Below, piece after piece: positions 9,282 through 40,581 of a stretch of DNA of 60,469 nt. Numbering within the stretch: the first letter of the stretch is position 1; each line of letters opens with the position of its first letter. The notes below the pieces were generated by a model. The model saw only the letters and a program-made list of their open reading frames with translations, ran no database searches and was not told the DNA's origin. Made by a program: the position numbers and the translations under genes. Source of the DNA: Gammaproteobacteria bacterium (GTDB taxonomy: Bacteria; Pseudomonadota; Gammaproteobacteria; Pseudomonadales; Azotimanducaceae); the NCBI GenBank assembly GCA_027292925.1, contig JAPUGI010000206.1, positions 1 through 60,469 on the forward strand, given 5' to 3'.

Positions 9282-10457
9282 ATGCCATCGTTGCAGGAAT
9301 TCATCAAAGATTCGATCAACAGCGCCCCGGCCGAGCCGGTGAAACTAAGTGATGCTGTTGCAATTGAGGAAGTACCTACTCCGGCATTAATCATTGATCT
9401 TGATCTATTCGAGAGGAATCTCGACAAGATGCAAACCTATTTGCGTAACAATAGTATTGATCTGCGGTGCCACACAAAAATGCACAAATGCCCGATAATC
9501 GCGCACAAACAAATTGATGCAGGGGCGATAGGAGTCTGTGCTGCAACGGTGAGTGAAGCTGAAGTAATGCAGACAAACGGAATAACCAATGTTTTGATTA
9601 CTTCACCTGTAGTGACACCAGAGAAAATTGATCGTGTAATAACACTTGGCGTTGACAACCCAGATCTGCAGATGGTGATCGATGACATCGAGATTGCAAA
9701 TCTGTTCAATAAAGCTGCGAAGCGGTCCGGCATACAATTGAGTGTGTTGATAGACCTTGATCCTGGGATGGGTAGAACAGGTATCGAAATGGGTGACCCT
9801 GCGTTGACGCTGGGTAATCACATTGTCGACAACTGCGACAGTTTGAGATTCGGTGGTTTGCAAATGTATGCAGGGCACTGCATGCACATAGAGGGTTTCG
9901 AGAATCGTCGAGGAAAATATAATCACATCATGGGGAAGGGGGCTGAAACAAAAACCCTATTTGAAGAATCCGGGATCGAGGTGCCTGTTTTCTCCGGAGG
10001 CGGCACGGGTACATTTAATATTGAGGCAGGCCTCGGTCTGATGACAGAGCTGCAGGCCGGGTCCTATATATTCATGGATATTGAATACCGGGAAATCGGC
10101 GGCGAGGGAAGCGAGCGGTTTGAGGATTTCGAGCCGTCACTGTTCGTTCTGGTCACCGCCATCAGCAAACCGCAGCAGCGACTGATTACGGTCGATGCCG
10201 GGTTCAAATCCTTTGCTTCTGACAAGATGGCACCGGAATTCAGGGATGTCGAAGGTGTCATTTTTCACTGGGGCGGCGATGAACACGGCATCATTCAACT
10301 GACAAATCCGTCCCGGGAAATCAACCTGGGTGACAAACTACCCATGTTGACACCTCACTGCGACCCCACCGTAAACCTGTATGATTACTATTATCCGGTG
10401 AGAGACGGGATGGTTGAAGAATTGTGGCCGATTACAGCCAGGGGACGTTCACAATAA
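9282..10457 (+). CDS. DSD1-family PLP enzyme (alanine-racemase-fold; D-Ser/D-Thr/3-hydroxy-D-Asp dehydratase or aldolase type)
   Basis: 391 aa. TPALIIDLDLFERNLDKM...LRCHTKMHKCPIIAHKQIDAGAIGVCAATVSEAE contains the PLP-Lys of the HTK motif. The C-terminal half (HCDPTVNLYD) looks like the D-serine-dehydratase-like beta domain. Confidence 0.72.
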   Translation: MPSLQEFIKDSINSAPAEPVKLSDAVAIEEVPTPALIIDLDLFERNLDKMQTYLRNNSIDLRCHTKMHKCPIIAHKQIDAGAIGVCAATVSEAEVMQTNGITNVLITSPVVTPEKIDRVITLGVDNPDLQMVIDDIEIANLFNKAAKRSGIQLSVLIDLDPGMGRTGIEMGDPALTLGNHIVDNCDSLRFGGLQMYAGHCMHIEGFENRRGKYNHIMGKGAETKTLFEESGIEVPVFSGGGTGTFNIEAGLGLMTELQAGSYIFMDIEYREIGGEGSERFEDFEPSLFVLVTAISKPQQRLITVDAGFKSFASDKMAPEFRDVEGVIFHWGGDEHGIIQLTNPSREINLGDKLPMLTPHCDPTVNLYDYYYPVRDGMVEELWPITARGRSQ

Positions 10458-11474
10458 ATGAAGAAGGCGCCATATTTTGAAGACTTTAGCGTTGGTGATG
10501 AGTTTAATGATGTTCCCGCGATAACCCTGACCGAGGGGCATACCGCCATCCATCAGGCATTGTTTGCTGATCGATCAAGGTTACCGTTGGATCTGGAACT
10601 GAGCGCCAGGGTTACAGGCCACGCGAAGGCGCTGGTGAATCCGTCGCTGGTCTGTAATTTAGCCATTGGCCAGAGTACGATTCCATCGCAACGAGTCATG
10701 GGTAACCTGTTTTATCGGGGATTGCATTTTCACCGACCTGTCTATGTCGGCGACACGCTGAAGACGACAACGCGGGTAGTCGCGCTGCGCCAGAACCAGA
10801 TTAAAAAAGACAGGGCGGCGTCCGGCATGGTCGCTCTGGAAATGCATGTCACCAATCAGACAGATGAAACTGTGCTACTGTTCTGGCGCTGTCCAATGAT
10901 CCCCTGCGAGGATCCAAAAGCTGATACAGGTTGTAGTGATAATTTTGAACGGATGCCGGAAGACATCAGTGATAGCAGCCTCGTCTCCTATATTCCGGAA
11001 TGGGACTATGATCATTTTCGGGATGCCCTGGCCGGTAAGCACTTCGTTGACTATCGATCTGGTGACATCTTCGAGATTGAGACCAGGGACACCGTGACAC
11101 TTGCACCGGAACTGGTTCGTATGACGTTAAATATGGCAATGACGCACACGGATGCCGACCGGTCAGTTTATGGAAAACGTCTGGTTTTTGGGGGGCACAC
11201 AATTTCGATGGCAGCCGCTCACATTAGTCATGCCTTCCCGAATATCATTACTATTCTCGCTTGGTATAAATGTGATCATGTCGCGCCTGTGTTCGAATTC
11301 GATATCCTAAATACCGTGGTGCAGGTTGAAGAAGTTCTGCCCGCCGACTCGTTTGGTCTGGCGAAAATTCACGCTGAGGTGTTTGCGACCAGGGGACCGG
11401 AAGCCCCGGAATCGTCGGGAGTTGGGGGAAATATCAAGGTACTCGATTGGAACCTGGCGGCACTGCTTGCGTAA
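10458..11474 (+). CDS. Double hot-dog MaoC-like enoyl-CoA hydratase (mesaconyl-/itaconyl-CoA hydratase-like)
   Basis: 338 aa. The N-terminus YFEDFSVGDEF...TLTEGH...ALF resembles Mch/Ich-type hydratases. Its ATG directly abuts the upstream stop (TAAATG), implying translational coupling. Confidence 0.65.
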   Translation: MKKAPYFEDFSVGDEFNDVPAITLTEGHTAIHQALFADRSRLPLDLELSARVTGHAKALVNPSLVCNLAIGQSTIPSQRVMGNLFYRGLHFHRPVYVGDTLKTTTRVVALRQNQIKKDRAASGMVALEMHVTNQTDETVLLFWRCPMIPCEDPKADTGCSDNFERMPEDISDSSLVSYIPEWDYDHFRDALAGKHFVDYRSGDIFEIETRDTVTLAPELVRMTLNMAMTHTDADRSVYGKRLVFGGHTISMAAAHISHAFPNIITILAWYKCDHVAPVFEFDILNTVVQVEEVLPADSFGLAKIHAEVFATRGPEAPESSGVGGNIKVLDWNLAALLA

Positions 11475-11509
11475 AAGTTGACGAGGGTGAGGGAAGGTGA
11501 GAAAGGCAA

Positions 11510-12718
11510 TTGGCAGGAATACTTAAAGGTCTTTGTATAGTCGAAGGCAGCGCGTTTGTTGCCGCGCCTCTCGGTGGAATGACGCTGGCGCAGCTGGGCG
11601 CGGACGTCATCAGGTTTGACCCAATTGGTGGTGGCCTGGATTACAAGCGCTGGCCAGTGACCCGTGATGGCAATAGCCTTTTCTGGGCAGGCATGAATAA
11701 GGGAAAGCGCTCTATCGCCGTGGATATGAGGAAGCCAGAAGGCAGGGAACTGTTAACCGCCCTGATCAGCCGCGACGGACCTGACAGGGGGATTTTCCTG
11801 ACTAACTTTCCCGAACGTGGCTGGCTGGCTTTCGATGAGTTACAAAGCAAACGCCAAGACCTGGTTTACATCAATATACTCGGTGATAGAAAAGGCGGTT
11901 CTGCTCTGGACTACACCGTTAACTGTGCAGTTGGTTTCGCCAATGCAAACGGTAAGCCTGACAACGATGAACCCGCTAATTACCTTCTACCAGCCTGGGA
12001 CAATATTACCGGGCAGATGGCTGCGGTCGCACTGCTGGCTGCTGAAAGGCATCGAAGGATAACAGGCGAAGGCCAGTTGGTGAAAATTGCCCTGAAAGAT
12101 GTGGCGCTGGCCATAACCGGGCATCTCGGAAATATCGGGGAGGTTGCGGTTAACCACCAGGACAGGGAAAAAGTCGGCAACTATCTATATGGCGCCTTTG
12201 GGCGTGACTTCCTGACAAAGGATAAAGAACGAGTGATGATAGTCGGGCTCACGCTAAGACAATGGCAGGCAATCCTCGCATCCATGAACCTGTCGCAGGC
12301 AATCGCTGACCTGGAAGTCCGACTGGGCGTGGATCTGGATCAGGAGGGGGAACGATTTCAAGCGAGGCAGGCAATCGCCGAATTGATAGAGCCGTGGTTT
12401 TTACAACACGACTACGCTCATGTTTCGTCTTTGTTTGACCAGCATGGTGTTTGCTACGGACCCTACAGAAGCTTTAAGCAGATGGTGGAAAACGATACTG
12501 ACTGCTCACTTGATAATCCGCTTTTTTCGATGGTCACTCAGCCTGGAATTGGAGAGTACCTGGCACCGGCTTCTCCTATCAGGTTTTCCAGTGTTGAAAA
12601 TCTTGATGCCATGGCTGCGCCGACATTAGGTGAACACACCGATGAAATTCTGGCAGAGGATCTTGGATTGACCAGCAGTGAAATTGGAGCGTTACACGAC
12701 AGCCAGATAGTTGCCTGA
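11510..12718 (+). CDS. Family III CoA-transferase, mesaconyl-CoA C1-C4 CoA transferase (Mct)-like
   Basis: 402 aa with a TTG start. Blocks VEGSAFVAAPLGGMTLAQLGADVIRFDPIGGGLDYKRWPVT, LFWAGMNKGKRSIA, ERHRRITGEGQLVKIALKDVALA and GNYLYGAFGRDF are near-identical to what I recall of Chloroflexus aurantiacus Mct. Confidence 0.7.
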   Translation: MAGILKGLCIVEGSAFVAAPLGGMTLAQLGADVIRFDPIGGGLDYKRWPVTRDGNSLFWAGMNKGKRSIAVDMRKPEGRELLTALISRDGPDRGIFLTNFPERGWLAFDELQSKRQDLVYINILGDRKGGSALDYTVNCAVGFANANGKPDNDEPANYLLPAWDNITGQMAAVALLAAERHRRITGEGQLVKIALKDVALAITGHLGNIGEVAVNHQDREKVGNYLYGAFGRDFLTKDKERVMIVGLTLRQWQAILASMNLSQAIADLEVRLGVDLDQEGERFQARQAIAELIEPWFLQHDYAHVSSLFDQHGVCYGPYRSFKQMVENDTDCSLDNPLFSMVTQPGIGEYLAPASPIRFSSVENLDAMAAPTLGEHTDEILAEDLGLTSSEIGALHDSQIVA

Positions 12719-13982: not shown

Positions 13983-16946
13983 ATGGGTGACGATACCAAA
14001 AGAGACACCAAAAACGATAACTCTGATGTCGGCTCTGATGTAAAAACATACGGCCGCCTGCTGGCTTATGTTATTCCCTACTGGGGCGCGTTCCTTGTCA
14101 GTATCATTGGCTTTCTTATCTATTCACTATCAAATGTCAGCTTCCTGCAATTAATTAGCTACATCGTTGATTCAGTGAAAAGCCCCGACCCGCTTTTACA
14201 ATCGGAGTACAGCGCTTTTTTGCAAGACATTTTTGGACAGCGCGATTCCTTAAACCGAACCGTTATTCCAATCGCCATTGTCACCATAGTGGTATGCCGT
14301 GGTCTTGGAACGTTTATTGGAAACTACTTTATCAGCTATGTATCTACGAACCTGATACACAATCTGCGATGCGAGCTATTCGATCAACTATTAAAGTTAC
14401 CCAGCAAGTTTTACGACAAGAGTGCCATGGGTCATCTCGTGGCGAAAGTAACCTTTCATGTCACGCAGGTAAGCGGCGCTGCAACAGATGCCGTTCGAGT
14501 CATCATCAGGGAAGGTTTTACGGTTCTTGGTTATCTAGCATTCCTTCTCTACCTGAACTGGAAACTGACATTGATATTTTTTGCTGTGGCCCCCTTTATC
14601 GCGTTGCTGGTTAACTTCACTGGCAGGAGATTCCGCCGAATCAGCGAACGCATTCAGCATTCAATGGGTGACGTGACTCATGTTGCTTCTGAGGCAGTGC
14701 AAGGTTACCGGGTGGTCAGGACCTTCGGTGGAACGGAGTATGAACGTCAGCGCTTTACCAAAGTCAGCCATTACAATCGACGCCAATCAATGAAAATGGT
14801 GGTCACTTCAGCTATTTCTACGCCAGTCATTCAGTTGCTGGTGGCGACAGCGTTGGCGGGCCTGGTTTGGCTGGTATTGGACCCGATATTATTGGCGAAC
14901 ATGAGCGCAGGTAATGTAGTTGCTTTCATCACCACGGGTGGATTGTTGGCGAAACCTATTCGCCAGTTATCCGAGGTCAATGCCACGGTACAAAGAGGGC
15001 TTGCTGCGGCTGAAGATATTTTTGACTTGTTTGACCAGGAAGTTGAAGAAGACCAGGGTGAACTAGAACTTGAGACAGTCAGTGGACGAGTTGAATTTAG
15101 AAATGTTTCCTTTTCCTATGGGGAGGATCTCCCACAAGTTCTAAAGGATATCAGTTTCACTGCCAGACCTGGGGAAACCATCGCCCTGGTAGGAAGGTCA
15201 GGTAGTGGGAAAAGTACGCTGGCGAGTCTGATCCCCGCTTTTTATGCGCCTACCAGCGGTACCATCTTGCTCGATGAAAAGCCAATCGAATCATTCTCTT
15301 TAACCAATTTGCGTCAACATATCGCCCTGGTCACGCAGCAGGTAACCTTGTTCAACGATACCATCGCTAAGAACATTGCTTATGGGGAACTGGCCGATTC
15401 CAGTGAAGAGGAAATTATTGAAGCGGCCAAAAAGGCGTTTGCCTGGGAATTTATTTCTGAGTTGCACAATGGCCTGGACACTGTGATTGGAGATGACGGT
15501 GTTTTACTATCTGGAGGACAACGGCAACGTCTGGTCATTGCCAGGGCATTCCTTAAAAATGCACCAATACTGATATTAGATGAAGCAACATCTGCGCTTG
15601 ATTCGGAATCTGAGAGGTACATTCAGACTGCTCTTGAAGCTGTGGTTAAAGGCAGGACAACATTTATCATTGCACATAGATTAACAACCATTGAAAAAGC
15701 AGACCGGATACTCGTCATTGATAATGGTCGCGTCGTAGAGCAGGGCACCCACACACAATTGTTAGCAAACGAAGGTTTTTACTCAGGATTTTACAATCGA
15801 GATGGGCAGGAGAAGCCTGAAACCGAGGCATCTATTCATCGGGCAGTTGGAGATTTCCTTCCGGTTCCCCATGTGCCTGATCGGAGTCGTTGGTTTTCGG
15901 AAGATTTTAATCCATTGTCAAAGGCCTGGTACTCAGGTGCAACCTGGGTGAAGTTTCTGAGACCTCTCGGGTTTCTCTATAACCAGTTGGGGCAAATAAG
16001 ACGGCAACGTATTGAACGTGATTCAAGGTCATGGAAAGCACCTGTACCGGTGATAGTAGTGGGAAATATCAATGTCGGGGGTACAGGTAAGTCACCACTG
16101 GTTATCTGGCTGGCGGAGCAGTTTTCTGCCAGGGGAATGAATCCAGGTATCGTTTCTCGTGGCTATGGGGGGGCCAGTCGACAATATCCTTTTGTGGTTG
16201 ATGCCCAGACAGACCCGAAGGTTGCCGGTGATGAGGCAGTCATGATCGCCCGCAGGACGAATTGCACCGTTGTCGTAGATCCAGACAGGGTGTGTGCTGT
16301 AAGGCGTCTTCTCGAAGTTACCGATTGTGACCTGGTGATCAGTGACGACGGTCTGCAGCACTATTTTCTTCAACGCGATGTTGAAATTGCAGTCGTTGAC
16401 GGGGAAAAAGGGTTGGGTAACGCCTTGTGTTTACCGGCGGGTCCGCTACGAGAACCTCCGGAAAGATTGAAAGAAGTCGATTTTGTGATCGTTAACGGCA
16501 AGGAAGATGTGAAAATACCTGTGTCCTATCAGCATATGATTCTGATTCCGACCGCGATCATTAACATAGCAACGGAGGAGTCCCAGCCGCCCCATTCAGA
16601 GGGCAAACCTGGCCAGGGCGTGCATGCGGTAGCTGGTATCGGAAATCCCGACCGTTTTTTTAGAATGTTGCGTGAACTTGGCTACCAGGTCATTGAACAT
16701 CCGTTTCCGGATCATCATTTGTTTGAATTATCGGAGTTGGTTTTCGGAGATTCGTTACCCGTCATCATGACTGAGAAAGATGCGGTAAAGTGCAGATTGC
16801 TAAATCTTGATTTGGTCCATCAGGAGTTTTGGTATTTGGAAGTTGGTGCGGAATTACCTCCTGTTTTTGTTACTTCCGTTCTCAGCAAAACGGGATTGAA
16901 TGTAACTCCACTTCATGTGATACCTAACGAAACAGCTAAGGTGTAG
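13983..16946 (+). CDS. msbA-lpxK: Fusion protein: lipid A flippase MsbA (ABC TMD+NBD) plus tetraacyldisaccharide 4'-kinase LpxK
   Basis: 987 aa in one uninterrupted frame. Residues ~1-605 form an ABC exporter (Walker A GRSGSGKST, signature LSGGQRQR, Walker B ILILDEATSALD) ending ...LLANEGFYSGFY. After a ~35-aa linker comes LpxK (APVPVIVVGNINVGGTGKSPLVIWLAEQF...GIVSRGYGG...DDGLQH). Confidence 0.85.
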   Translation: MGDDTKRDTKNDNSDVGSDVKTYGRLLAYVIPYWGAFLVSIIGFLIYSLSNVSFLQLISYIVDSVKSPDPLLQSEYSAFLQDIFGQRDSLNRTVIPIAIVTIVVCRGLGTFIGNYFISYVSTNLIHNLRCELFDQLLKLPSKFYDKSAMGHLVAKVTFHVTQVSGAATDAVRVIIREGFTVLGYLAFLLYLNWKLTLIFFAVAPFIALLVNFTGRRFRRISERIQHSMGDVTHVASEAVQGYRVVRTFGGTEYERQRFTKVSHYNRRQSMKMVVTSAISTPVIQLLVATALAGLVWLVLDPILLANMSAGNVVAFITTGGLLAKPIRQLSEVNATVQRGLAAAEDIFDLFDQEVEEDQGELELETVSGRVEFRNVSFSYGEDLPQVLKDISFTARPGETIALVGRSGSGKSTLASLIPAFYAPTSGTILLDEKPIESFSLTNLRQHIALVTQQVTLFNDTIAKNIAYGELADSSEEEIIEAAKKAFAWEFISELHNGLDTVIGDDGVLLSGGQRQRLVIARAFLKNAPILILDEATSALDSESERYIQTALEAVVKGRTTFIIAHRLTTIEKADRILVIDNGRVVEQGTHTQLLANEGFYSGFYNRDGQEKPETEASIHRAVGDFLPVPHVPDRSRWFSEDFNPLSKAWYSGATWVKFLRPLGFLYNQLGQIRRQRIERDSRSWKAPVPVIVVGNINVGGTGKSPLVIWLAEQFSARGMNPGIVSRGYGGASRQYPFVVDAQTDPKVAGDEAVMIARRTNCTVVVDPDRVCAVRRLLEVTDCDLVISDDGLQHYFLQRDVEIAVVDGEKGLGNALCLPAGPLREPPERLKEVDFVIVNGKEDVKIPVSYQHMILIPTAIINIATEESQPPHSEGKPGQGVHAVAGIGNPDRFFRMLRELGYQVIEHPFPDHHLFELSELVFGDSLPVIMTEKDAVKCRLLNLDLVHQEFWYLEVGAELPPVFVTSVLSKTGLNVTPLHVIPNETAKV

Positions 16947-17914: not shown

Positions 17915-19339
17915 ATGCCTGATTTTGTACTTGTTGTAAAAGAAGACTGCGCGACTTGCCGATTGGTGGTTCCAGTAGTTAACCAACTGGCTAAACTTTT
18001 TGACCTGGAAGTATATTCTCAGGATAACCCGAATTTCCCGCCAGAAATTAGTGTCATTGATGACAGCGAATTGGAAAAGTCCTGGTCACTCAACATAGAA
18101 ACAGTACCAACCATCATCAAGTACGATCATAGTAGCGAAACTGGTCGCAGCTTTGGTTGGGACAGAGAGGCCTGGGAAGCCTTAACAGGTGAATCATTGA
18201 TACCTGATCTACCTGATTTTAGACCCGGGTGTGGATCCAGGACAATGGATCCGGGGATGCTGGAAAAATTGTCGGTAAAGTTTGGAAAGGACAAATTACA
18301 CTCCAGACGAGTTATTACGGCAGATGAAGAAGACGAAATTGAGGCGTGTTTTGACCGAGACTGGTCTGATGGTTTTCCGGTAGTTCCTCCAACTGAAATC
18401 AGGGTAGTGAGGATGTTGTCGGGAACGTTCCGCGATCCGGTAGAAGTAATCGGCACAGTGCCACCGGATTACGGTGAATGCACGATAGAAAAAATTGCCG
18501 TTAATGCGGTGATGGCAGGATGCAAACCCGAGTACCTGCCTGTTGTCATTACAGCCGTTGAAGCCGCCCTGCAGGATGAATTCTGTATGCATGGGTTGCT
18601 GGCAACTACCTATTTTTCAGGACCCATGGTATTGGTTAATGGTCCCATTTCGCGCGCCATCGGGATGAATTCAAGAGGCAATGCCCTGGGTCAGGGCAAT
18701 CGCGCCAATGCCACTATCGGGCGGGCACTCCAACTGGTGATACGCAACGTTGGAGGTGGCAAACCTGGAGGTGTAGATCGTTCCGTTCTTGGCAACCCAG
18801 GCAAATATTCCTACTGTTTTGCCGAAGACGAGACCAACTCCTGCTGGGAGTCTTTGGCAGTTGAAAAGGGTTTCACCAGTGATCAGTCAACTGTAACGCT
18901 GTTTGCTGCAGATGGCATGCAAGGAATTGTAGATCAGAAGTCCCGCGAGCCTGAATCATTAGCACGCACCTTTGCCGCTGGGTTAAGAGTCGCTTCACAT
19001 CCAAAGCTGGTTATGGCAGCAGATGCCTTCCTGGTTGTATCGCCGGAACATGAGAGGGTTTTCAGAGACGCAAACTGGTCGAAACAACAATTGAAGGACA
19101 AGCTCAATCAATTACTGATGATTCCCGGCGCGGAACTCGTCATCGGTGCAAACGGTATTGCAGAGGGGATTCCTGAAAAATTCAGGGATGCGACATTGCC
19201 TAAATTTCGCGAAGGTGGATTGAACATTGTAAGAGCAGGCGGAAGTGCAGGGCTATTCTCTGCCATAATCGCAGGATGGGGAGCCAGTGGGGATATTGGC
19301 AGTGTTCCAGTCACCCGTGAAATCTCCCACCTCCAGTAA
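17915..19339 (+). CDS. Thioredoxin-fold (CxxC) domain fused to a ~370-aa conserved domain of unknown function
   Basis: 474 aa. The N-terminal ~100 aa, VVKEDCATCRLVVPVVNQL...ETVPTIIKY, look like a Trx-like fold with a CATC dithiol. I cannot assign the rest (DWSDGFPVVPPT, AVNAVMAGCKPEYLPV, NALGQGNRANATIGRALQL) to a named family. It starts 12 nt after kdsB. Confidence 0.6.
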   Translation: MPDFVLVVKEDCATCRLVVPVVNQLAKLFDLEVYSQDNPNFPPEISVIDDSELEKSWSLNIETVPTIIKYDHSSETGRSFGWDREAWEALTGESLIPDLPDFRPGCGSRTMDPGMLEKLSVKFGKDKLHSRRVITADEEDEIEACFDRDWSDGFPVVPPTEIRVVRMLSGTFRDPVEVIGTVPPDYGECTIEKIAVNAVMAGCKPEYLPVVITAVEAALQDEFCMHGLLATTYFSGPMVLVNGPISRAIGMNSRGNALGQGNRANATIGRALQLVIRNVGGGKPGGVDRSVLGNPGKYSYCFAEDETNSCWESLAVEKGFTSDQSTVTLFAADGMQGIVDQKSREPESLARTFAAGLRVASHPKLVMAADAFLVVSPEHERVFRDANWSKQQLKDKLNQLLMIPGAELVIGANGIAEGIPEKFRDATLPKFREGGLNIVRAGGSAGLFSAIIAGWGASGDIGSVPVTREISHLQ

Positions 19340-19368
19340 ACAGTTAACGGTAACAAAAGGAGCTAATC

Positions 19369-19887
19369 ATGAGCACCACATTAATGGACCCGACTTCGGA
19401 GATGGCTTCGGAGCACCGGGAGCCCCTTCCAAGGCCAACCTCGTTGGATGGTTTAACGGTGGGCTTACTGGATATTTCCAAAGCTCGTGGCGACATCTTC
19501 ATTGATCGGATTGAAGACCTGCTGGTCCAGCGAGGGATCAAAACACGCCGCTATAAAAAGCCAACGTTTACTCGAGTTGCTCCCCTAGAACTGACACAGC
19601 AGATCGCAACTGAATGTGACGTTGTTGTGGAGTCGCTGGCCGATTGAGGTTCATGTACGTCGTGCAGTTTGCATGACATTCTGGATCTTGATAGAAGGGG
19701 ACTCCCCGGTGGGTTTGTCGCATCTGAAGAATTCGTAGAGGCTGCCAGCGCCCAGGCAAAATCGCTGGGCTTTGATCCCCATAAGGTTTTTGTCCCTCAT
19801 CCGATCCAGGACAGGACCGATGAGGAGATGCAACAGATTGCCGAAAATGCGTTTGACGAGGTACTCGCGCTAATCTTGAGTAAATAG
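19369..19887 (+). CDS. UGSC-motif selenoprotein (Sec encoded by TGA at 19645-19647); merges track ORFs 19369..19647 and 19669..19887
   Basis: Both ORFs are in the same frame. Read-through gives ...ECDVVVESLAD-U-GSCTSCSLHDILDL.... A strong SD (AAGGAG) precedes 19369, and there is no SD before the TTG at 19669. A SECIS-like hairpin lies 11 nt after the UGA. Confidence 0.7.
19659..19677 (+). promoter_or_regulatory. Candidate bacterial SECIS hairpin
   Basis: GUCGUGC-AGUUU-GCAUGAC forms a 7-bp stem (one G.U) with a 5-nt loop containing GU. It starts exactly 11 nt 3' of the UGA, the spacing of the minimal E. coli fdhF element. Confidence 0.5.
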
Positions 19888-19911
19888 TGCGCCAAGCTCG
19901 TCATGCTTCGC

Positions 19912-19938
19912 GCCCTCAGCATGACCGAAGCTGAGGGC
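19912..19938. terminator. Hairpin between convergent genes (possible bidirectional terminator)
   Basis: GCCCTCAGC-atgaccgaa-GCTGAGGGC forms a 9-bp stem. An overlapping alternative is GACCGAAGC...GCTTCGGTC. There is no clear U-tract. Confidence 0.4.
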
Positions 19939-38817: not shown

Positions 38818-40581
38818 CTAAGGACGGTACAACTTTTCCGCACCTTGTGGACGAATGTTAAATCGTTTATCAGACCACCTATACTGGTTACGATTTGCAG
38901 TGACGACTTCTTCGAACTGTCGATTGATATCTAAAAGTATGGTTTTGTCATCTGCGCCGGTATCGTAATCGCATGGGTGGAGATGCAAGCGGAAACCAGC
39001 CTCTTCCCGCAGGGCGATACCGAATACCAGCGCCGGATAAGTGTCTCTTAAAAGATAAGGTAATGTCAGAGTGGTGAGCGCCTCGACCCCGAAAAACGGA
39101 ATGAATGCGCCGCTCCGCAGTCGTGGTTGCTGATCTGGACAGAGGGTTATAACCTCGCCGTCACGCAGTTTTTCGAGCAATTTGAGTCTGTGTAATCTTG
39201 TGTGGTCCAGCAGAGCTATACCCATTGAACAACGTTGCTGTCTGATAAGTTCATCAAAGCTGCTGATGCTGTTTGGGTGGTAGTACTCTGAAGTATTAAA
39301 CCGTTGTCCAAGATAACGCAAAACCACTTCCCTGTTTCCAAGGGGAGGTGTCATGACGATGGCAGATCCTTCGATCATGTTTTCCAGACCTTCAACCGAG
39401 AGCAGCATGGAGTGGAAGTGAATGTCGTTGCAATACCAGACCTTGCCAATTTCAAATATGGCTTTCGAGAACTCACGAATTGATGTTTTTACCAGGTGTT
39501 TTTTCTCAGCATCATCCTGTTGTGGATAGCAGATAGAAACGTTCCGGCTGGTCACTTTTAAGTGCTTGCCACGAATTAACAAAATGTAACCAGCGAGTAA
39601 GGCAGACAGTAGATGGAGGCTCGCCAGATTCAGTAGTGAGGTGATGCGCAGCAGGCCCCGAATGATAGTTTTTTCAACCAAGACACTGACGGGGTTGTCC
39701 GGGAAATGGTACAGTTCCTTATCACCGTCTTCACGTGTGCGAAAGCGTTTGTATGACCAGAGATACTGTTCGGGGATTCGGCTGACCACGTTTTCAACGG
39801 CATCGTTTAGTGCCTGAATTGAAATAGTTTCATCCGGCGATCCAAGATCGACTTGTTTCAGTATCACCTTAAATCCTGCGCCATCACCCAATCGTTTGCA
39901 ATATGCAACGACACAGATTGCGCTAGTTCGCCGCGCCAATCCCGGAATAAGCTGGCTGGTCAGGGCAGGCTGTCCAAAAAAACGGGCGAATTTACCGGTG
40001 TGTACATCTGGCTCCTGGTCGGGCATGGCACCAATTACACCTCCTGCCTTCAGTATCTGTAATTGACTTCTGATACCGCTAATACCTGCCGCGACGAAAT
40101 TTGTACCCGCGCGGGATCGACAAGCCTGTATTAATTCTTCCATGGCTGGAGATCGGTTGGGTAGGTACATGTGTGTCAGGGCGTAATGACTGCCGAGGAA
40201 ATGATTGATGACTTCCCAGTTTCCCAGGTGAGGGATGACAAAAATAATGCCCTGACCTCGGGCACGCCGCTCATCAAGTTCGGCTTTACCCTCCACCGAG
40301 ATGATTGATTGCATGCAGGCTGCGCCGGGTGAGGCCCAGGCAAATGGAGTCTCCATGATAGTCTTGCCTGTCTCACGGAGGCTCCTTTTGGTGAGATCAG
40401 TTTTCTGTTGCTCACTAAGCAGTGGATAACAAAGGTCGATATTTTCCTTGGAAACTTGCGCCATCCGCGAGTTAATGAGCCAAAGGATCGAACCAAGCAA
40501 TGCGCCCGAACTTTGCAGTACTCGCAATGGTAAAATCGATAATGCGCTTAGCAACAAGTGGAACAGGTGGCTTTTTAGCAC
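38818..40581 (-). CDS. Tandem fusion of two LpxL/LpxM-type lipid A (Kdo2-lipid IVA) late acyltransferase domains
   Basis: 587 aa. Domain 1 (aa ~1-295) has PHLGNWE (HX4E), MPDQEP and EQYLWSYKRFRTR. Domain 2 (aa ~296-587) repeats the fold with PPLGNRE (His replaced by Pro), CPDQQP and NQYRWSDKRFNIRP. Confidence 0.8.
   Translation of the reverse strand: MLKSHLFHLLLSALSILPLRVLQSSGALLGSILWLINSRMAQVSKENIDLCYPLLSEQQKTDLTKRSLRETGKTIMETPFAWASPGAACMQSIISVEGKAELDERRARGQGIIFVIPHLGNWEVINHFLGSHYALTHMYLPNRSPAMEELIQACRSRAGTNFVAAGISGIRSQLQILKAGGVIGAMPDQEPDVHTGKFARFFGQPALTSQLIPGLARRTSAICVVAYCKRLGDGAGFKVILKQVDLGSPDETISIQALNDAVENVVSRIPEQYLWSYKRFRTREDGDKELYHFPDNPVSVLVEKTIIRGLLRITSLLNLASLHLLSALLAGYILLIRGKHLKVTSRNVSICYPQQDDAEKKHLVKTSIREFSKAIFEIGKVWYCNDIHFHSMLLSVEGLENMIEGSAIVMTPPLGNREVVLRYLGQRFNTSEYYHPNSISSFDELIRQQRCSMGIALLDHTRLHRLKLLEKLRDGEVITLCPDQQPRLRSGAFIPFFGVEALTTLTLPYLLRDTYPALVFGIALREEAGFRLHLHPCDYDTGADDKTILLDINRQFEEVVTANRNQYRWSDKRFNIRPQGAEKLYRP

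Follow-up and report, generated by a model that had tools for sequence, protein, structure and literature searches.

An in-frame UGA followed by a SECIS-like hairpin marks a probable UGSC-family selenoprotein gene with a conserved thioredoxin-domain neighbour

Two open reading frames (ORFs) on the forward strand of contig JAPUGI010000206.1 (assembly GCA_027292925.1; Gammaproteobacteria bacterium, Azotimanducaceae) raise the question of whether they are two short genes or the two halves of one. The window, by which we mean the whole 60,469-nucleotide (nt) stretch analyzed here, contains ORF 19369..19647, which starts with ATG, ends with TGA, and encodes 92 amino acids (aa) in the mechanical ORF list, and ORF 19669..19887, which starts with TTG, encodes 72 aa, and shares its frame. 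A first-pass annotation, made from the letters alone, noted that only the TGA and seven sense codons lie between them and proposed that UGA is decoded as selenocysteine (Sec) in a protein of the UGSC family; the arrangement is as described. We conclude, with a probability of about 0.93, that 19369..19887 is one gene, that it encodes a UGSC-family selenoprotein, and that Sec is inserted at its UGA with the help of a downstream hairpin.

The family was named 'UGSC-containing protein' in the selenoproteome surveys of Zhang and Gladyshev (PMC1976440, PMC2398784, PMC13188914). A study of Olavius symbionts lists it as 'a selenoprotein of unknown function' (PMC1976440); in Global Ocean Sampling data it ranks among the most abundant families, with 255 Sec versus 21 Cys sequences, and its fold was given in 2008 as 'likely Trx-like' (PMC2398784). 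A 2026 review places it under NF041046, among families with functions that 'remain largely uncharacterized' (PMC13188914); the first-pass annotation likewise stated that no biochemical function has been assigned. The locus adds a member to a family catalogued since about 2007 and is a rediscovery, with no new type of element. New here are a predicted flavodoxin/Rossmann-like fold, a near-constant and sometimes fused partner without a family model, and a weak, in-register, and unproven similarity to the D-proline reductase selenoprotein PrdB.

A single reading frame across the UGA

The gene and its start and recoding signals are located as follows.

19358..19363, forward strand: Shine-Dalgarno sequence AAGGAG, read from the letters and separated from the ATG at 19369 by 5 nt.
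19369..19887, forward strand: gene proposed for a UGSC-family selenoprotein of 172 residues with Sec93, replacing the mechanical ORFs 19369..19647 and 19669..19887.
19645..19647, forward strand: UGA codon read as Sec (residue 93), which opens the motif U-G-S-C-T-S-C; the column holds Cys in homologues and the codon is TGA in relatives.

The frame opened by the ATG at 19369 runs on past the TGA as far as the TAG at 19885-19887. The start signals are those reported earlier, with AAGGAG before the first ORF and no Shine-Dalgarno before the TTG at 19669. Read-through yields ...ECDVVVESLAD-U-GSCTSCSLHDILDLDRRG..., in which VVVESLAD-U-GSCTSCSLHD surrounds the motif, that is, the U-x-x-C-x-x-C following a hydrophobic run that the first reading had pointed out. 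For scans with profile hidden Markov models (HMMs) we replaced U by C. The protein of 172 residues then scores 144.5 bits with NF041046 of NCBIfam, 'UGSC family (seleno)protein', where the curated cut-off is 125 and the match covers profile positions 1-145 of 147, and 144.5 bits with Pfam PF24696, 'UGSC' (cut-off 25; positions 2-170 of 172). These full-profile matches, both above the curated cut-offs, mean that the protein is colinear with the family across the UGA and bear out the proposed membership. With U-G-S-C at the family's Sec/Cys column, nothing essential sets the window protein apart from known members.

We compared the protein with its 120 best database homologues, all full-length (170-198 aa). 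The UGA column holds Cys in 119 of them, which continue to the protein end as the first-pass annotation expected, and Trp in one, most simply explained by a UGA translated with a different code. Apart from the U/C column, the motif D-[U/C]-G-S-C-T-S-C-x-x-H-D is invariant, and Cys83 is conserved in 113/120. At the level of genomes, scanned one per species, the Sec93 codon is TGA at all 80 of the closest Sec loci, 75 with the exact motif and five with GSCTTC, and the frame continues in each; none shows a product ending at ...SLAD with a separate gene behind it. The hosts span at least six phyla (Chloroflexota, Actinomycetota, Alpha-/Gamma-/Deltaproteobacteria, SAR324, and Hydrogenedentota); two cultured strains, Halopseudomonas pachastrellae JCM 12285 and H. 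oceani DSM 100277, are among them. Sec forms carry a flanking signature, E-[AG]-L-A-D-U...S-[VLM]-H-D-I, and prevail among the closest, mainly aquatic, relatives, in agreement with the ocean surveys.

The closest relative retrieved, contig JACZXW010000033.1 of GCA_022571415.1 (L169), is syntenic with the window over CoA-transferase genes, msbA-lpxK, kdsB, the gene directly upstream of UGSC (the partner, see below), UGSC, SDR, murB, rne, rluC, and maf, and its partner protein is 89% identical to that of the window. Codons on the two sides of the UGA compare as follows.

Upstream of the UGA, window versus L169: 49 identical, 38 synonymous, and 5 non-synonymous codons; nt differences by codon position 5/4/39.
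Downstream of the UGA, window versus L169: 44 identical, 28 synonymous, and 7 non-synonymous codons; nt differences by codon position 5/1/34.

The two genes stop at codon 173 with the same stop codon, past which just 13/60 bases match and the 3' flank is unalignable. Judged by these substitution patterns, the part 3' of the UGA is evolving as coding sequence that continues the upstream frame. As predicted in the first-pass annotation, gene callers truncate or split such a gene: the public annotation of GCA_022571415.1 holds a 92-aa 'UGSC' call and leaves the second half uncalled, and an exhaustive protein profile search returned many fragments of ~94 aa ending at profile position 94 and others of ~72 aa beginning at position 103.

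A SECIS-like hairpin selected in Sec forms

The RNA following the UGA folds into a structure resembling a bacterial selenocysteine insertion sequence (SECIS).

19643..19692, forward strand: whole SECIS-like element in the minimum-energy fold, with an imperfect lower stem (19643-19655 with 19681-19692, which includes the UGA) and the upper stem-loop.
19659..19677, forward strand: upper SECIS stem-loop, 11 nt after the UGA, with an 8-bp stem GUCGUGCA/UGCAUGAC and the apical loop GUU (19667-19669).

The letters of the upper hairpin are GUCGUGC(A)/GUU/(U)GCAUGAC. The hairpin that had been described at 19659-19677, 11 nt past the UGA, is present, and the fold is fuller than first drawn, the 8-bp upper stem sitting on a lower stem that holds the UGA. 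Positions 19640-19700 fold at -19.9 kcal/mol versus -13.0 +/- 2.6 for dinucleotide shuffles (z = -2.65), and 3/200 shuffles are as stable. We aligned 74 distinct Sec-form genes without gaps over 63 nt, from UGA-6 to UGA+56. In this set 95.3% of the cells of the upper helix are paired. Pair 24-36 joins the third positions of the codons for Ser98 and His102 and is intact in every sequence (GU 38, GC 30, AU 6). All sequences share G29 and U30 of the apical loop. Pairing in the lower helix reaches 60.8% of cells, with two-sided changes at columns 14/45 and 15/44.

As a control we used 69 distinct Cys-form genes, taken from metagenome contigs and four encoding contigs, which encode nearly the same peptide (C-G-S-C-T-S-C-S-T-H-D), require no SECIS, and have the same GC content as the Sec set (0.59 in both). 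The two forms differ in codon choice and in stem formation; the Fisher P-values given below overstate independence, the orthologues being kin, but the direction of the difference is unambiguous.

Ser98 codon: TCR in 75/75 Sec forms; TCG 34, TCC 21, TCA 7, and TCT 7 in Cys forms (TCR 41/69); Fisher P = 3e-11.
Cys99 codon: TGC in 75/75 Sec forms; TGC 56 and TGT 13 in 69 Cys forms; Fisher P = 4e-5.
Ser100 codon: AGT in 70/70 Ser codons of Sec forms; AGT in 2/68 of Cys forms; Fisher P = 1e-37.
Residue 101: in Sec forms V, L, or M, encoded by NUG; in Cys forms Thr (ACN).
Upper-stem pairs formed, of 8: 7-8 in all Sec forms; 4-7 in Cys forms.
Mean local minimum free energy, kcal/mol: -10.2 in Sec forms; -5.3 in Cys forms.

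The synonymous codons that build the stem do not vary among Sec forms but do among Cys forms, which means that the hairpin is selected beyond the protein code. On the strength of this codon comparison, we consider the hairpin a structure under selection, and in Sec forms only. Because it is formed by the codons of the invariant C-T-S-C-S-x-H-D, it limits both synonymous choice and the residue at position 101.

The minimal SECIS of E. coli fdhF is reportedly, from the work of Liu et al. 1998 and of Huttenhofer and Bock, an upper stem-loop placed 11 nt 3' of the UGA, and a bulged U in that stem is needed for binding by E. coli SelB. The element described here shares with it the 11-nt spacing, the apical G-U, the placement of the UGA inside a weaker lower stem, and the location within the coding sequence; it differs in lacking the bulged U, in its loop (GUU, or 5-nt in C-M-H variants), and in its unrelated sequence. 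The earlier suggestion of recoding through a hairpin with the fdhF spacing is supported; the element is like an fdhF SECIS in its spacing and loop G-U and is not of the strict fdhF type. By analogy with the fdhF paradigm, a ribosome arriving at the UGA at 19645-19647 would meet SelB-GTP-Sec-tRNA(Sec) bound to the hairpin at 19659-19677 and would insert Sec in place of termination.

Recoding weighed against termination and sequence error

Several results weigh against this reading of the locus. Rfam returns no SECIS or other family, either at gathering thresholds over the whole window or at E<=10 on 19560-19760, and the perfect 8-bp upper stem has no bulged U such as that of fdhF. RNAalifold keeps only six core upper-stem pairs, with no compensatory double change among them; few pairs covary because the upper stem overlaps invariant codons, so that most stem pairs are themselves invariant. 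The covariation check suggested in the first-pass annotation favors the hairpin, through its conservation, pair-preserving changes such as those at pair 24-36, and Sec-specific codons, with the scarcity of true compensatory double changes as a caveat. A tRNA scan of the window found no tRNA at all, hence no tRNA-Sec, and selA, selB, and selD are missing from it by Pfam and NCBIfam scans of 40 other ORFs. The window, ~60 kb in all, carries housekeeping genes (clpB, the fab set, rne, murB, kdsB, msbA-lpxK, and others) and represents about 1-2% of a genome, so the absence of Sec genes from it is expected and says little about the remainder.

If the UGA were a genuine stop, the locus would encode a 92-residue protein and a separate 72-residue protein started at TTG 19669. 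This split is what the mechanical ORF list and public gene calls give, and it sits well with the lack of Sec machinery in the window and with the normal use of TGA as a stop in this genome, for example in kdsB and exbD, whose ends show that TGA is not read as sense throughout; a scan for TGA-interrupted frames elsewhere in the window gave only gene junctions and non-coding frames. However, termination would divide an invariant motif and one compact domain, and would rely on a TTG without a Shine-Dalgarno. It also runs counter to the conservation of the seven inter-ORF codons as G-S-C-T-S-C-S in relatives, to the 119/120 homologues that are one continuous protein with Cys at the column, and to a hairpin after the UGA that is specific to Sec forms, all of which makes it very improbable. 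A pseudogene or sequencing error, in which a TGY Cys codon was mutated or misread as TGA, needs just one base, TGA being that far from TGC or TGT. Yet the same TGA recurs in 80/80 independent genomes of several phyla, the 5/1/34 differences downstream of it reveal purifying selection, and Sec forms have their own flanking signature and codon constraints; this explanation we hold to be barely credible.

Predicted fold of the UGSC protein

We modeled the fold with AlphaFold2 on an alignment led by a Cys homologue 61% identical to the window protein. The model (mean predicted local distance difference test score, pLDDT, 93.9) has five parallel strands in a beta-alpha-beta arrangement; that it was computed on a Cys homologue weighs against reading it directly onto the window protein. 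The Sec/Cys lies where strand 3 ends and helix 3 starts, with Cys96 one turn on and Cys99 two turns on. The best matches of the model in the PDB are flavodoxins, lumazine synthases, and B12-binding domains, with template modeling (TM) scores <= 0.56, and a PDB sequence search with the UGSC profile returned nothing. According to this model, UGSC is flavodoxin/Rossmann-like and not of thioredoxin fold, which corrects the 2008 suggestion. The earlier assignment of a redox-active Sec after a strand-like run fits the modeled position, with the fold refined as above. Like the thioredoxin-fold selenoproteins (Trx-like, Prx-like, and SelW-like), the protein places a UxxC at the N-terminus of a helix after a strand; unlike them, it has a parallel, five-stranded sheet, and the thioredoxin domain lies on its partner protein. 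Divergent members carry G-D-C-G-S-C-T-S-W or G-D-C-G-T-S-T-S in place of the motif, which identifies the first Cys/Sec as the essential residue and the third Cys as dispensable. The N-terminal D-P-T...R tail is invariant and unstructured in the model.

A conserved upstream partner

One neighbor accompanies the UGSC gene almost everywhere.

17915..19339, forward strand: partner gene, 474 aa, directly upstream of UGSC, with an N-terminal thioredoxin domain (C12-A-T-C15) and a ~370-aa body.

Neither Pfam nor NCBIfam gives a match to this protein, even at E<=10. A homologue 53-69% identical to it stands directly upstream, on the same strand, in 78/80 Sec loci, and one of the two remaining loci has no space for it on its contig. 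The partner likewise lies directly upstream in the Cys-form loci examined (47-56% identical), and a partner match occurs in 155 of the 164 loci compared. The junction is most often a 4-nt overlap; in the window, it is a 29-nt spacer with the Shine-Dalgarno. Among the 80 Sec loci there is no third conserved neighbor, the next commonest family occurring in 22/80, and kdsB, murB, and SDR are not conserved neighbors of UGSC.

The partner family comprises at least 8,000 clusters at 90% identity, whose names go no further than 'thioredoxin family protein' or 'hypothetical'. Residues 1-95 form the thioredoxin domain, with an invariant C12-x-x-C15. The body contains three Cys that are invariant family-wide (C106, C203, and C301), about 97 residues apart. 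Strongly conserved motifs of the family include W-S-D-G-L-P-V-V-P-P-T and G-N-R-A-N-A-T-I-G-R-A. The body has no convincing relative by structure, and two identities were considered for it and rejected. A class-I Fe-S fumarate hydratase, the top structural match, was suggested by Foldseek (E ~4e-4) with a TM score of ~0.2, and hhalign against E. coli FumA aligned nothing in the body. For PrdA/GrdE, comparison with real PrdA sequences gave E = 0.76, with no PF09338 match. In one Cys-form locus, that of GCA_963841575.1 (L084 3558-5004), the partner is called as two pieces of 331 and 147 aa in different frames, probably because the long-read assembly contains a frameshift there.

Natural fusions came out of the exhaustive profile search as well: P0348 (549 aa, of normal composition) and, in partial form, P0368, P0360, P0384, and P0353. 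In these proteins, an N-terminal UGSC-like domain is followed by the partner body without the thioredoxin domain, and the fused bodies are 36-50% identical to partner residues ~134-454. They are probably the 'UGSC/Unknown_1' of Figure S1A in the 2008 paper, which would make Unknown_1 the partner body. Another candidate, P0248 (651 aa), appeared to fuse the two in the order partner then UGSC; its Arg/Ala/Pro-rich, out-of-frame stretches point to a frameshifted contig, and we rejected it as a real fusion. Adjacency and fusion together argue strongly for a physical complex of UGSC and partner, and from this genomic evidence the 474-aa protein is probably the working partner of UGSC.

Resemblance to selenoprotein B and proposed mechanism

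The UGSC protein and its partner recall PrdB and GrdB, the B subunits of D-proline and glycine reductase, in several respects. Both families have U-G-[ST]-C directly past a hydrophobic strand, E-x-x-G-[IV]-P-T-[IV] ~14 residues further on, and DN-x-[KD] before it. Both have a second, larger subunit, and the UGSC partner has a thioredoxin domain built in; glycine reductase is re-reduced by thioredoxin. The differences concern size (~170 aa for UGSC versus 240 for PrdB and 436 for GrdB), hosts (mostly aerobic aquatic and soil bacteria versus the amino-acid-fermenting anaerobes of PrdB/GrdB), and context, since the prdC and prdA genes that flank prdB in real prd loci are missing from the conserved UGSC neighborhood. 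The partner body is also unrelated to PrdA/GrdE, the pyruvoyl proprotein type of PF09338.

We searched with a PrdB-like bait sequence. It matched Pfam GRDB at 60.5 bits and the UGSC model weakly, over the motif region only (E = 0.0034, below cut-off), and its search brought back real, source-named PrdB proteins. With shallow profiles, hhalign placed UGSC and PrdB in register at a non-significant E = 0.11. A diverse UGSC profile (Neff 4.9) gave a score of 29.5 (P = 0.0011) over 89 columns, in register at the Sec column, with the pairings D-C-G-S-C/G-U/C-G-T-C, R-G-V-P-T-V/A-G-I-P-T-I, and L-D-N-x-K-x-N-A-D/Y-D-N-x-D-V-N-K-D. The score exceeds that of reversed profiles (13-17) and of all 100 block-shuffled templates (maximum 28.5). 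Three results tell against kinship. The margin over the best shuffled template is narrow, Pfam GRDB (PF07355) matches neither the window protein nor nine divergent UGSC members at E<=10, and the partner body has no similarity to PrdA (E = 0.76). By sequence comparison, homology between UGSC and PrdB is plausible, the similarity being weak and the relationship unproven.

A side observation concerns the PrdB sequences in the databases, many of which show Trp at the Sec position (consensus LTAGWGTCHRS in the alignment of P0391-P0510). This looks like the work of gene callers that use genetic code 4 or 25 for UGA, and means that Sec proteins can stay hidden as 'W' variants in public protein sets.

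In the mechanism that we infer, Sec93 would be the catalytic nucleophile and Cys96 would resolve it to a selenenylsulfide. UGSC would act in complex with the product of 17915..19339, whose thioredoxin domain (CATC) would recycle the Se-S bond and whose body, with its three invariant Cys, would bind a substrate or cofactor; the D-P-T...R tail of UGSC is a candidate docking peptide. The pair may then form a self-contained two-protein thiol/selenol oxidoreductase, possibly distant kin of the D-proline/glycine reductase B subunit. That this functional model is put together by inference is itself a point against it. A bolder form would make UGSC and its ~470-aa partner a widespread, self-contained, two-subunit Se-dependent reductase, with the Sec subunit an ancient minimal relative of selenoprotein B, the body the substrate-binding part, and the thioredoxin domain the recycler of the Se-S bond; we offer it as a speculative proposal, rather doubtful as it stands.

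A different role would follow if the protein is a selenoprotein whose Sec93, Cys96, and Cys99, perhaps joined by Cys83, serve as ligands of a metal or an Fe-S cluster instead of forming a selenenylsulfide, in a metallo-enzyme or in cluster transfer. Cys forms do carry C-x-x-C-x-x-C, a classic ligand spacing, and Cys83 is present in 113/120 homologues. A single hint comes from the relative P0347 (285 aa), which joins a UGSC-like domain to a C-terminal NifU-like domain (PF01106, 28.7 bits, cut-off 27), and the three invariant Cys of the partner body, ~97 residues apart, go with a faint likeness in fold to Fe-S fumarate hydratase. That likeness, however, amounts to a TM score of ~0.2 without profile support, and the model puts the motif at the N-terminal end of a regular helix, where a redox CxxC usually sits. 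Divergent members replace the third Cys by Trp (GDCGSCTSW) or keep the first Cys alone (GDCGTSTS), so that a set of three or four Cys ligands is no feature of the family. We judge metal binding unlikely, and prefer a redox role for the Sec.

Other features of the window

Just past the UGSC stop, between the convergent UGSC and SDR genes, positions 19910-19938 (forward strand) contain an inverted repeat rich in G+C, CGCCCUCAGC / GCUGAGGGCG, whose 10-bp arms enclose a 9-nt loop. No T-run follows, which is why the repeat is missing from the terminator scan list, and it folds with a z-score of only -1.84; a bidirectional terminator and an element like the repetitive extragenic palindromes (REP) are possible readings.

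Three further loci deserve mention. The 987-aa ORF at 13983-16946 (forward strand) fuses MsbA (TIGR02203, 725 bits, residues 22-605) to LpxK (TIGR00682, 270 bits, residues 662-957), the lipid A 4'-kinase, and a corresponding fusion of 981 aa is called in L169. At 38818-40581 on the reverse strand, a 587-aa ORF matches PF03279, the family of lipid A biosynthesis acyltransferases, in two stretches, and its product looks like a tandem or fused protein of the LpxL/LpxM kind. A three-gene cluster at 9282-12718 (forward strand), conserved in L169, resembles parts of the beta-hydroxyaspartate and methylaspartate pathways. Its products are an aldolase resembling BhcC (314 bits, cut-off 690), a protein similar to MaoC/mesaconyl-CoA hydratase, and a CoA-transferase like 2-methylfumaryl-CoA isomerase (585 bits, cut-off 725), all of which score under the equivalog cut-offs.

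Implications

For annotation, the gene should stand as one 172-residue selenoprotein; standard callers cut it, like its L169 orthologue, to 92 aa. The comparison of Sec and Cys codons provides a clean case of an RNA element that shapes codon choice and, at position 101, the amino acid itself. UGSC proteins are among the most abundant selenoproteins of ocean metagenomes, and three leads to their function emerge here: an obligate, in some cases fused, partner, a predicted fold other than that of thioredoxin, and a possible distant kinship with PrdB/GrdB. Were the proposed two-subunit reductase real, it would bring Sec chemistry of the Stickland type to aerobic marine and soil bacteria and would define a large protein family, of at least 8,000 clusters, for which Pfam and NCBIfam offer no model.

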